64,000 nt of DNA from Dehalococcoidia bacterium (lineage in GTDB: Bacteria; Chloroflexota; Dehalococcoidia; Plut-88900), in contig CBDBLV010000005.1 of assembly GCA_965207225.1 (NCBI GenBank), positions 1,280,001-1,344,000 of the forward strand. The letters are read 5' to 3'. Below are positions 27,685 to 29,424 of the stretch, piece after piece; position 1 is the first letter of the stretch; every line of letters begins with the position of its first letter. A program made the translations under genes and the position numbers. The notes under the pieces were generated by a model. The model had not been told where the DNA came from and did not search any database. It was given only the letters and a program-made list of their open reading frames with translations.

Positions 27685-29424
27685 ATGAGCCGCATAAGCC
27701 TACACAGGCCCCGTCTCAGCCGAGCAGTATTCCGCCGCCCGGCCCCCGGCACGCGCCTCCTCCCAGGCTCCTTTCTCTTTCCACACCCCGTCCTGCACCC
27801 CAACACCCACTACAAGCGCTGCCCAAAGGCCCAACGTCTCGGCCTTCGCAGCGATCAATCACCGCCCCGCCCCATGCAAGGAAGGTCCCCGGACAAATTA
27901 CGGCACGTCCTATTCAAGGGCCGTTGCCAGGTGCGCGCCCCACTCATAGGGCGCAACGGTTTCGCCCCGTCAGGCGACGCTAAGGAGCACGGTGTAATGT
28001 TGCTCCATCGGGCCATCGCGCCCTTCTCGGACTCCCCCGGCATACACCCTGCCGACCTGTCCGGGCAGTTGGACAACCCCCGACTCAAAACAAAGGCGAC
28101 CTTTTGGGATTCCACCGTCGTCACCTTCGGCAAGCTCCGGTCTACGAACGGCGGTCACGGGTCCTCGCTCTCAACCCTTGGGGTGGTAGAGCACTTCCGG
28201 TGGTCGAGGCTGCCCCAGAGCGAGAATTTCTCGCGTCTCGTCCACATCCTCTCGGAAGTATGGGGCTGTGATTCCACCGTCGTCACCATCGGCAAGTTCC
28301 GGTCTATGAACGGCGGTCACGGGTCCATGCTCTCACCCCTTGGGGTGCTAGAGCGCTTCCGGTGGACGAGGCTGCCCCAGAGCGAGAATGTCTCGCGTCT
28401 CGTCCACATCCCCTCGGAAGTGTGGGGCTGTCGCAGAATCGACGCTGATGTGGACCGTCCCCGGGGGCGGACACCCCGCATCGGTACAGGCGTCGCCGAC
28501 ATCCTGCGCAAACCGTCCGGGACCTTCCACCCCCTCCCCCGATTTGCTATGTCATCCCGAGGCCCCGCGAGGGATCTCAAGGGCCCGTCTCAAGACATGG
28601 CATTCACCGCCGTTCACCCCCATCCAACTTCAGTGAGTGTAAGGAGTACAGCCTCCCGTACCCTGAAAGAATGGGCTGGGATGAGGTTGATCCCCTCCCC
28701 GCCTACCAGTACCAAACTAGAGGGAAGCACCTGTGCCAGGGCGCAGGCGCTTGCCCCTGTTTTTCCTTCCCTCTCTCCCTTAAAGGCCCTGAGAGGCTGC
28801 CCCGAGTCCCTCGAGGGGGTCACAAGAGCGGAACGGGGTGGTGTCCCCTCCTCTGAGCGAGGGGAGGCCCATACCCTTCCAACCCGTCCCGTCAGCCTTC
28901 CAAAATTCCTTCCCCTAAGTACCAAACTAGAGGCGGGCAGATGCGCCTTAGCGCATCTGCCCGCCTCTGTTTTTAATCCCCCCCTCTCCCTTAAAGGCCC
29001 TAAGGGTCGAAGATGCGCCTATGGCGTGAGAGGGGGATCAAGGGGGAGAGGGTTCCTCCCTCCCCGCTCCTTAAACAATCAAAAACCCGCCCCTCTCTTC
29101 AATGGTGACATGTCCATAACTGTTTCCCATGACAACACCTTAACCAAGTGTTGCACTTCGTTTGTGAATTTAGAGAATCCATCCCTCCGAAACAACCACC
29201 TCCAGCTCTGCAACTCACCCCATCCCTCCCTTCCCCACCAGTACCAAACTAGAGGGATGCACCTGCGCCTTGGCGCAGGTGCATCCCTCTGTTTTTATCT
29301 CCCCCTCTCCCTTAAAGGCCCTAAGGGAGAGGGGGATAAAGGGGGAGAGGGTTCCCTTTCCGACCCCTGCGACACGCGAAATCCCCGGAAATCCCTTCAG
29401 GCGTCATTCAATCAAACCAGCTAG
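27685..29424 (+). CDS. Possible 579-aa Arg/Pro/Ser-rich ORF overlying element A and the repeat mosaic
   Basis: AAGGAG RBS + ATG; N-terminus similar to the ORF at 51167; reads through R1/R3 repeats; no recognisable domain. Confidence 0.3.
   Translation: MSRISLHRPRLSRAVFRRPAPGTRLLPGSFLFPHPVLHPNTHYKRCPKAQRLGLRSDQSPPRPMQGRSPDKLRHVLFKGRCQVRAPLIGRNGFAPSGDAKEHGVMLLHRAIAPFSDSPGIHPADLSGQLDNPRLKTKATFWDSTVVTFGKLRSTNGGHGSSLSTLGVVEHFRWSRLPQSENFSRLVHILSEVWGCDSTVVTIGKFRSMNGGHGSMLSPLGVLERFRWTRLPQSENVSRLVHIPSEVWGCRRIDADVDRPRGRTPRIGTGVADILRKPSGTFHPLPRFAMSSRGPARDLKGPSQDMAFTAVHPHPTSVSVRSTASRTLKEWAGMRLIPSPPTSTKLEGSTCARAQALAPVFPSLSPLKALRGCPESLEGVTRAERGGVPSSERGEAHTLPTRPVSLPKFLPLSTKLEAGRCALAHLPASVFNPPLSLKGPKGRRCAYGVRGGSRGRGFLPPRSLNNQKPAPLFNGDMSITVSHDNTLTKCCTSFVNLENPSLRNNHLQLCNSPHPSLPHQYQTRGMHLRLGAGASLCFYLPLSLKGPKGEGDKGGEGSLSDPCDTRNPRKSLQASFNQTS
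27880..28528 (+). ncRNA. Putative structured RNA, copy A
   Basis: Closing stem GGAAGGTCCCCGGAC (27880-27894) / GTCCGGGACCTTCC (28515-28528); hairpin series shared with copies B and C. Confidence 0.55.
28108..28431 (+). repeat. 162-bp tandem duplication (2 diverged units)
   Basis: GATTCCACCGTCGTCACC...TGGGGCTGT starts at 28108 and again at 28270. Confidence 0.92.
28550..29357 (+). repeat. REP mosaic: R1 plus three R3 elements
   Basis: R1 at 28550; R3 (AGTACCAAACTAGAGG-hairpin-CCTCTGTTTT..CCCTCTCCCTTAAAGGCCCT) at about 28708, 28918 and 29240. Confidence 0.85.

Follow-up and report, generated by a model that had tools for sequence, protein, structure and literature searches.

Promoter-bearing repeats with hairpin-rich cores in one uncultured genus of Dehalococcoidia: candidate cis-acting promoter-leader cassettes

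The window analysed here is a stretch of 64,000 nucleotides (nt) from a Dehalococcoidia bacterium (assembly GCA_965207225.1, contig CBDBLV010000005.1, positions 1,280,001 to 1,344,000 of the forward strand). It carries three diverged copies, A, B and C, of a large element that a preliminary description had proposed as a candidate new family of large structured RNAs. We find that these copies are members of a repeat family that is confined, among the genomes searched, to one uncultured genus of Dehalococcoidia and that comprises about 35 units per genome, not the three first described. The units sit in 5' intergenic regions and point at the gene that follows, they are exchanged between conserved sites, and in the class that includes A and C a long reading frame is kept open without amino-acid constraint. 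These features, together with the anatomy, copy number and distribution of the units, we regard as firm. On this basis we tentatively read copy A as a unit of a set of genus-specific, portable promoter-leader cassettes that would act in cis, with a translated leader in the A/C class.

In each of A, B and C a promoter is followed by a leader and then by a core, which is bounded by a long-range inverted repeat built on GGAAGGTCC / GGACCTTCC and holds an ordered string of hairpins. In core A the closing arm GGAAGGTCCCCGGAC (27880-27894) pairs with GTCCGGGACCTTCC (28515-28528) on the plus strand. The other two cores lie on the minus strand; in B, GGCGATGGAAGGTCC (34593-34579) pairs with GGGCCTTCCATCGCC (34209-34195), and in C an arm identical to that of B, at 51072, pairs with GGTCCTTCCATCGCC, which ends at 50717. 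Reading of the sequence bears out the original account of three look-alike copies with a closing repeat and a common hairpin order, and the hairpins quoted as second in that order are found in all three. Homology was also said to reach 5' of the closing stem, and indeed both leader and promoter can be aligned among copies. Core A contains a tandem duplication of 162 nt (28105-28269 and 28267-28431). More generally the number of such modules varies, with one to three 162-nt units in type A and one or two 111-nt units in type C (window 28105-28431, G005:C1:2718549-2718973 and G000:C2:179683-179894); both unit lengths are divisible by three.

To determine the size of the family, A, B and C were run by BLAST against their own genome (4.03 Mb in five contigs), which returned many copies of each. 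The arm sequence GGCGATGGAAGG occurs 58 times in this genome, in about 29 pairs; pairing of arms gave 34 full cores and the merged list holds 35. Core length separates them into five types, namely D with 14 copies of about 300 nt, E with 2 copies of 322 nt, B-like (359-397 nt, 9 copies), C (340-456 nt, 6 copies in the core-length listing and 7 by BLAST) and A (413-653 nt, 4 copies in that listing, with 8 units carrying an A-type leader). In a small extra group of three units an arm-like motif lies 238 nt after the ATG. When loci of relatives are included there are 99 distinct cores, which form eight clusters plus type A; the family has at least nine subfamilies. A near-consensus promoter stands at a fixed place in every aligned copy (7/7 C-type and 16/16 D/E-type), and the promoter scan also picks up promoters at A, B, the nusA unit and the leuS unit. 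Copies located before unrelated genes are 79-96% identical over 300-600 nt.

The distribution of the family was assessed in three ways, and holds for the genomes sampled by these searches. A 19-letter arm motif matches 78 stretches of the genome collection, 70 of them in ten assemblies labelled 'Dehalococcoidia bacterium'; the remaining eight are singles elsewhere, about the level expected by chance. By DNA similarity the family is present throughout the genus (nine of nine genomes, counting the own one) and absent from the 32 other genomes searched. Finally, R1, a covariance model of a 101-position module of the core (module M, described below) trained on C- and D-type copies and on no A or B copies, gives 14-38 matches in each of the nine genus genomes, but no match in three genomes from other genera of the same family or in a further 145 genomes that represent 109 genera of the class.

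The units are placed and oriented with respect to the gene downstream of them. For orientation we used a gene list from a simple codon-score caller, in which start codons are approximate. The downstream gene is co-oriented with the unit in 32 of 34 cases, while upstream genes divide evenly, 17 in the same and 17 in the opposite orientation. Copy A is one of the two exceptions, as the next called frame (29471-30127) lies on the minus strand; it has no Pfam match. The downstream genes, many of which are housekeeping genes, include rpoB, nusA, recA, gyrB, rpsB, rpsO, leuS, a Glu/Gln-tRNA synthetase gene, def, mnmA, katG and moaA as well as genes for fructose-bisphosphatase, RNase D, CoA-transferases, amidohydrolases and monooxygenases. 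In the window, B points at mnmA and C at rpsB. The terminator scan found no intrinsic terminator between the D- and B-type cores and mnmA, nusA or leuS, nor any between the tail of B and mnmA. The target of one B-type unit (G000:C1:38513-40344), located 300 nt downstream of it, is a transposase gene of the IS481 type with rve and HTH domains. A ligand-specific riboswitch or T-box reading is ruled out: among the 32 downstream genes that were examined are genes of transcription, of translation, of repair and of various metabolic functions, and such diversity makes a single ligand or regulon unlikely.

Comparison with related species revealed that the sites are old and that their occupants change. 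For 31 units of relatives both flanks could be assigned to a single locus of the own genome; at 24 of these loci the own genome has a unit in the same orientation, and at the other seven none was detected, the own intergenic gap being much shorter at five. The 24 shared sites hold the same subfamily in 13 cases, and in only two does a unit match its syntenic counterpart best, so units are exchanged between sites. In front of def, the 3' junction with the promoter region of that gene is identical in five species, yet the units there belong to three subfamilies with different promoters and leaders; whole units, promoter included, are therefore replaced at fixed sites. This points to exchange at the DNA level between copies and not to RNA copying. 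At four compared sites without a unit in the own genome the whole intergenic region differs and no clean empty site was recovered. Intergenic regions that bear a unit are 1-1.5 kb long, compared with 0.2-0.35 kb where the unit is missing. At least three more short repeat families crowd the same intergenic regions (window ~28540-28600, 50560-50700 and many others), with motif counts of 74 for gtcattcc(g/c)..ccc..gaggaatc, 53 for ctctcccttaaaggccc and 24 for cgctcgccctgagc.

The A/C class is set apart by a strong ribosome-binding site and a start codon in the leader. The AAGGAG and ATG motif is kept in 30 of 33 matches of this kind (the other three read ACG, AGG and CTG), and in 19 of 20 A/C copies the ATG frame has no stop between the ATG and the 3' arm. 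With expected stops per frame taken from dinucleotide shuffles, type A has 5 stops in the ATG frame (frame 0) compared to 55 in frame 1 and 25 in frame 2 (expected 31); the corresponding values are 0, 22 and 20 for long C (expected 24) and 0, 16 and 4 for short C (expected 9). All five frame-0 stops of type A fall in one frameshifted copy. The B, D and E cores, which have no ATG, show neither stop depletion nor an open frame. What is maintained in A and C does not look like a peptide. Variable columns are spread over the three codon positions (86/85/95 in A, 16/19/22 in short C and 54/43/54 in long C), the codon score of the frames is about 0 as opposed to 0.37 ± 0.13 for genes, and no frame has a Pfam match. 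Thus, an ordinary protein-coding gene fails on codon-position pattern and codon usage even though the frame is kept open, and the lack of codon periodicity together with the non-gene codon usage indicates that openness, not a peptide, is selected. The absence of stops from one frame is also the best evidence that the promoter strand of A and C is expressed and probably translated.

The frames extend 73-1818 nt beyond the 3' arm into unrelated flanks. In 13 of the 15 units that are followed by a terminator-like hairpin in their own direction the frame crosses the first one (10/11 in the own genome and 3/4 in relatives), and the own-genome exception is the frameshifted copy. In 5 of 13 units the stop falls within -60 to +34 nt of a start codon for the next gene that is preceded by a ribosome-binding site. 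Copy C is such an example; its frame stops at 50178-50180, 12 nt before the rpsB ATG (50165), and is the same frame as that of rpsB. Coordinates of all features in the window are collected in Table 1.

Table 1. Features of units A, B and C and of their surroundings, given as positions in the window.
Feature	Position	Strand	Basis or remark
Terminator-like hairpin directly upstream of unit A, 20-bp stem, T-rich tail	27452..27495	+	Terminator scan
Predicted promoter of unit A, TTTGCA-18-TATACT with TG	27593..27622	+	Promoter scan; aligns with C-type promoters
AAGGAG ribosome-binding site and ATG (27685-27687), A/C-class leader	27675..27687	+	Sequence
579-codon stop-free frame, leader ATG through core A and both downstream hairpins	27685..29424	+	No Pfam family; codon score 0.04 vs 0.37 for genes
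Core A, arms GGAAGGTCCCCGGAC / GTCCGGGACCTTCC	27880..28528	+	Folding z = -6.6
Module M copy 1, in first 162-nt tandem unit	28103..28203	+	Model R1, E = 2e-6
Module M copy 2 of A	28265..28365	+	Model R1, E = 1.5e-6
First terminator-like hairpin downstream of A, inside open frame	28928..28969	+	Terminator scan
Second terminator-like hairpin downstream of A, inside open frame	29250..29291	+	Terminator scan
mnmA, gene that unit B points at	32912..34069	-	Gene call
Tail of B, C/A-rich and G-poor (...CCCACAACTGAAGAAAAAA), common to B/D/E units	34141..34194	-	Sequence, alignment
Core B	34195..34593	-	Arm pairing; 9-copy consensus fold, 114 pairs
AAGGAGG of B/D/E-class leader, without start codon behind	34804..34810	-	Sequence
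Predicted promoter of unit B, TTGACA-17-TATCAT, 11/12 matches	34847..34875	-	Promoter scan
Terminator-like hairpin upstream of unit B	34986..35027	-	Terminator scan
rpsB, gene that unit C points at	49281..50165	-	Promoter-like site at 50245-50216
329-codon stop-free frame, leader ATG (51167-51165) through core C and hairpin	50178..51167	-	Open reading frame reading
Terminator-like hairpin between core C and rpsB, inside open frame	50477..50518	-	Terminator scan
Core C	50717..51072	-	Arm pairing; folding z = -6.8
Module M of C	50823..50923	-	Model R1, E = 1.9e-17
Predicted promoter of unit C, TTGCTC-17-TATACT with TG	51231..51259	-	Read from sequence, the first hexamer being under the scan threshold

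The clusters of cores each fold as a closing stem round a row of hairpins. The cores fold better than dinucleotide shuffles on the promoter strand, with z = -6.6 (A), -4.8 (B) and -6.8 (C); after removal of the arms the values are -4.5, -1.4 and -5.2, respectively. The reverse strand folds similarly (z = -4.7, -5.1 and -8.6). It is G-rich and has the lower energy in 90 of the 99 cores, so the promoter strand is not favoured by the folding-energy test. In the closing stem, which was compared in 85 cores, 1238 of 1275 cells are Watson-Crick pairs and there are 15 G-U cells as opposed to 3 A-C cells. Among interior helices called on both strands, 47 columns contain G-U and 30 A-C. Cluster 1 (16 sequences) mixes both orientations, as its arms look alike, and was excluded from these strand counts. 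The earlier observation that mismatches read as G-U pairs on the promoter strand therefore stands as a bias in that direction, although the bias is modest.

Module M consists of an outer stem, a CCGUC.../...GACGG stem with a loop of about 30 nt and then a hairpin with the loop CCCUCCGA. We counted covariation in this module and in the B-type copies. In 22 C/D-type copies of the module 16 cells are changed on both sides compared to 5.3 expected, a number reached in none of 500 shuffles, and these changes are carried by four pairs only. The loops of the module share an invariant 6-nt complementarity, UCGGAG/CUCCGA, which is paired in 97% of cells; because it never varies it gives covariation nothing to test. 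With model R1 the two 162-nt modules of A are recovered at E ~1e-6, their stems being compensated; B is found weakly (E = 0.25). In the nine B-type copies, 3 of the 114 predicted pairs show a change on both sides. Covariation within a subfamily is thin. Collectively, pairing is conserved, mostly in the form of Watson-Crick palindromes, and the data lean to the promoter strand without proof of an RNA fold. By eye, alternative pairings are also conceivable: directly 5' of the 5' arm the B/D/E leader (for example window 34640-34594, minus strand) contains CCUUCC..CCAUCC, a stretch that might replace the 3' arm as pairing partner of the 5' arm (GAUGGAAGG), and in type A a GGCCUUC motif about 30 nt 5' of the arm offers a similar possibility.

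These data can be assembled into a model of how the proposed cassettes would work. Each unit has a predicted sigma-70-type promoter of its own, a leader bearing a strong AAGGAG(G), and a hairpin core of 300-650 nt with the conserved 15-bp inverted repeat, to which B/D/E units add the C/A-rich tail. Units occupy about 35 fixed places just 5' of genes and would be transcribed toward them, and DNA recombination between copies would swap whole units, promoter included, among the places. In the A/C class a ribosome would start at the leader ATG and trail RNA polymerase through the core and the terminator-like hairpins, keeping these hairpins and Rho from ending transcription. The tightness of the coupling between translation and transcription would then set what share of the transcription started at the strong promoter arrives at the next gene. 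For B/D/E units, an untranslated, tightly folded leader would run on toward the gene, or Rho would end it in the tail. Genes for Rho and RNase III are present in the genome, and the accessible parts of PMC5021804 and PMC4824070 describe how a ribosome coupled to RNA polymerase prevents terminator hairpins from forming and Rho from loading; reused, mobile promoters are likewise a described phenomenon (PMC3575422). That units are transcribed and translated, that polymerase reads through and that the gene behind a unit is affected at all are predictions of this model from sequence. The orientation rule, the lack of terminators behind B and D units and the open frame are what lead us to favour cis cassettes.

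Several observations weigh against the cassette model. The hairpins after A and C have 19-20-bp stems and T tails in the units' own direction, and at face value such strong hairpins would close A and C off as separate transcription units. One relative has, at its rpsB orthologue, a frame that stops short of the terminator-like hairpin, and for 8 of 13 units a distance of more than 100 nt separates the frame end from the likeliest start of the next gene. Moreover, rpsB, nusA and def keep a promoter-like site of their own, and the gene's promoter persists where the own genome lacks the unit, indicating that the unit is not needed for expression. The orientation bias could stem merely from selection against antisense transcription into neighbours. 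Finally, the model has no role for the conserved fold, the invariant closing stem and the loop-loop match. In a version in which the large fold matters, the units would be a new kind of mobile regulatory device, a cassette of kilobase scale: cleavage of the closing helix might free an abundant RNA, or the fold might act as a speed check on the trailing ribosome, so that some 35 core genes, including rpoB, nusA, recA, gyrB, rpsB and leuS, share one input while cores are swapped among docking sites. We consider this version doubtful.

The terminator-like hairpins themselves belong to a separate genome-wide repeat family of about 107 members (214 matches over both strands). Its base AGAGG...CCTCT and its flanks, ..gtactgaacT.. 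and ..gTTCTTCTCTCC, are conserved. The stem interior of about 13 bp is highly variable yet complementary, with 155 distinct sequences among the 214 matches, and about half of the hairpins have a T-rich tail on the strand read.

An alternative close to the preliminary description is that the units encode stand-alone, trans-acting large structured RNAs, in which the closing helix would serve as an RNase III-type processing stem that frees the core to act, for example, through its C-rich loops. In keeping with this, each unit has its own strong predicted promoter, strong terminator-like hairpins follow A and C, and RNase III is encoded in the genome. The closing stem is nearly invariant over subfamilies and species, and hairpin order is kept while sequences differ, to the point that R1 reaches type A from C/D training. 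The covariation of module M above shuffles, the invariant loop complementarity and the excess of G-U over A-C on the promoter strand could all reflect an RNA, and interchangeable subfamilies at a site would be expected if function were independent of the site. But both strands fold equally well, few pairs covary within a subfamily, the G-U bias is modest and the invariance of the loop-loop match leaves it without a covariation signal. In A and C the frame that starts at the ATG behind the ribosome-binding site is kept open through the core, and ribosomes on it would unfold the RNA, and strict placement 5' of genes is unexpected for trans-acting loci. The idea of non-coding RNA genes is therefore weakened by the open frame, and further by the strand-symmetric fold and by positions and orientations tied to the downstream gene; we hold free RNAs to be rather unlikely, though well worth keeping in mind. 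Somewhat less likely still is a selfish, non-autonomous DNA repeat, either a MITE (miniature inverted-repeat transposable element) or a mosaic of the repetitive extragenic palindrome (REP) or bacterial interspersed mosaic element (BIME) kind, whose inverted repeat and palindromic hairpins would act in the DNA, with promoter, frame and placement being what purifying selection lets survive. A perfect 15-bp terminal-type inverted repeat bounds the core, the fold is strand-symmetric, copy number is high, units are present or absent between species (7/31 sites without an own unit), they are exchanged between sites and nested among other repeat families, and the modules differ in tandem copy number; mobile repeats of small size that bring promoters and open frames with them have been described (PMC3575422 and, in its accessible part, PMC2759123). 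Against such a repeat stand the near-consensus promoters in all copies, the age of most sites, which are common to several species, and a hairpin order conserved over subfamilies that have diverged in sequence. An autonomous partner with the same ends was not found in the own genome, where all 58 GGCGATGGAAGG arms pair within 300-470 nt and so each belong to short units. A search of the own genome found no TnpB, IS110 or Y1 HUH genes; IscB had no search of its own. The inverted repeat bounds the core alone, while the swapped unit adds a leader of 150-250 nt, the promoter and a tail of about 50 nt, and no direct repeats or target duplication were seen at the outer unit ends in the aligned copies and at the def site. 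As the repeated unit exceeds its inverted repeat, it is not a simple MITE with terminal inverted repeats (TIRs), which agrees with the preliminary description.

The A/C frames might instead be genes for fast-evolving, disordered proteins rich in Arg, Pro and Ser, the hairpins being incidental. The strong ribosome-binding site with its ATG and the frame-specific absence of stops would fit, as would type A leader lengths of 189, 195, 201 and 213 nt, which differ by multiples of three, a GC content by codon position in the order third > first > second, as in real genes, in 13 of 14 A/C frames, and an N-terminal stretch of 30 residues that is similar between A and C frames. This explanation is improbable, given the substitutions without codon-position bias, the codon score near zero, the lack of a Pfam family and a C-terminal end left undefined by frames that run through terminator-like hairpins into the flanks. 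Over a homologous stretch of about 100 nt of the core, in addition, the frame of long C differs from that of short C, and most of the family (B, D and E) has no such frame. A retron-like or other reverse-transcribed element, suggested at first by the likeness of the closing repeat to retron a1/a2, is very improbable. It would account for a long closing inverted repeat round a structured interior, and the own genome does contain four reverse transcriptase (RT) genes (C2:158 kb and C5:1548, 1553 and 1671 kb). The nearest unit to any of them is about 20 kb away. No RT gene occurs in the window, as noted before, and a search for copies next to an RT, HUH or TnpB gene, proposed at the outset, found none adjacent to any copy. 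The number of copies, about 35 per genome, also speaks against it, and an RNA copy that starts at the transcription start cannot explain how promoters are exchanged together with cores. The RT matches at G000:C2:158087-158773 and C5:1548409-1549095 have identical scores and each lies in a 586-codon frame; the other two show a split RVT_1 match, their frames measuring 641-652 codons, and all four are distant from any unit. What probability remains goes to an explanation outside cassettes, free RNAs, selfish repeats, proteins and retroelements.

An invertible promoter switch (inverton) is rejected, as 23 of 23 own-genome copies aligned with their leader (7 C-type and 16 D/E-type) have one orientation of the core with respect to leader and tail. 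Outside this count lie seven more elements whose look-alike arms led to extraction on both strands and which cannot be oriented. The sequencing runs listed for window 26500-35500 include no RNA run. Contigs assembled from short reads (six DNA runs from two studies) over 27000-35200 are fragmented across the repeats and provide no usable joints for inversion, excision or exchange.

Scans against known RNAs were empty. With the 4227 models of Rfam 15, the sole match in the whole window at or above the gathering score is a tRNA at 1071-1142. Permissive scans of A, B, C, D, E, long-C and short-A copies gave chance-level hairpin matches far below gathering scores. The earlier statement that the copies match no RNase P, tmRNA, 6S, SRP or group I/II intron is thereby upheld, and HEARO, OLE, GOLLD, ROOL and Chloroflexi-1 likewise have no Rfam match to the copies. 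In size (300-650 nt) and number of hairpins the cores resemble OLE, GOLLD, ROOL, HEARO/omega RNA, raiA and Chloroflexi-1 (RF01698), and HEARO is multi-copy as well; the units differ from these large RNAs in the lack of an Rfam match and of a TnpB-type partner and in that about half of them are predicted to be translated through.

Correia elements and ERIC are promoter-bearing intergenic repeats of a similar kind. The putative mobile promoters (PMPs) of PMC3575422 are also alike in being closely similar sequences upstream of unrelated genes that carry promoters and inverted repeats foldable in the transcript and lack a transposase of their own. The PMP definition in that work, at least 80% identity over at least 50 nt before unrelated genes of one genome, applies to the units, the promoters being predicted. 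Compared to these three groups the units are large, 0.5-1 kb as opposed to 100-170 bp, and a long leader, headed by the promoter, separates the latter from the inverted repeat. They further differ in an ordered multi-hairpin interior conserved over at least nine subfamilies, in sites that are conserved between species while the units are swapped, and in a class with a long open frame. Promoter-bearing intergenic repeats and mobile promoters are the nearest known kinds, and the size, the promoter position, the multi-hairpin fold, the unit swapping at conserved sites and the long open frame set the family apart from them. We found no description of this family in the literature, supplements being outside the scope of the search. 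The Chloroflexota repeat cluster of a 2026 preprint is, from the accessible part of that source, a different, short-period array.

Two further comparisons are informative. In pyrBI, a leader frame runs through a terminator and read-through is set by the coupling of ribosome and polymerase. The A/C units resemble pyrBI-type attenuation in having a leader frame, here with predicted translation, that passes through terminator-like hairpins before a gene. They differ in frames of 190-790 codons and not tens, in a hairpin core of 300-650 nt that the frame must cross, and in being repeated many times in front of genes that are unrelated; neither regulatory codons nor pause signals were identified in them. 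Rickettsia palindromic elements are repeats that are read in frame. MITEs and REP/BIME repeats are similar to the units as non-autonomous, palindromic multi-copy repeats with terminal-type inverted repeats, whereas here no autonomous relative or target-site duplication was seen, the unit exceeds the inverted repeat, and the units have their own promoter and start codon and a strict orientation toward genes. Some repeats of the MITE/REP type carry open frames, the enterobacterial RU repeats being among those read in frame (accessible parts of PMC2759123 and PMC10969869), and the general principle of coupling and read-through is treated in the parts of PMC5021804 and PMC4824070 noted above.

Even if the family is a selfish repeat, it accounts for long spurious 'hypothetical proteins' that gene callers likely report in these genomes, and it provides a marker for the genus. 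The mnmA frame, for instance, is open for about 108 codons 5' of its likely start at 34069, into core B (window 32912-34393, minus strand), and automatic gene calls may give an over-long MnmA at these positions. Should the cores prove to be free RNAs, a new class would be added to the large bacterial RNAs, one encoded by about 35 genes in each genome. If the units act as the proposed cassettes, a single portable control module would be common to a whole set of housekeeping operons in an uncultured lineage from soil, natural reuse of promoter and leader would occur at a scale and size not described before, and selection would keep a long frame open for the act of translation and not for its product.

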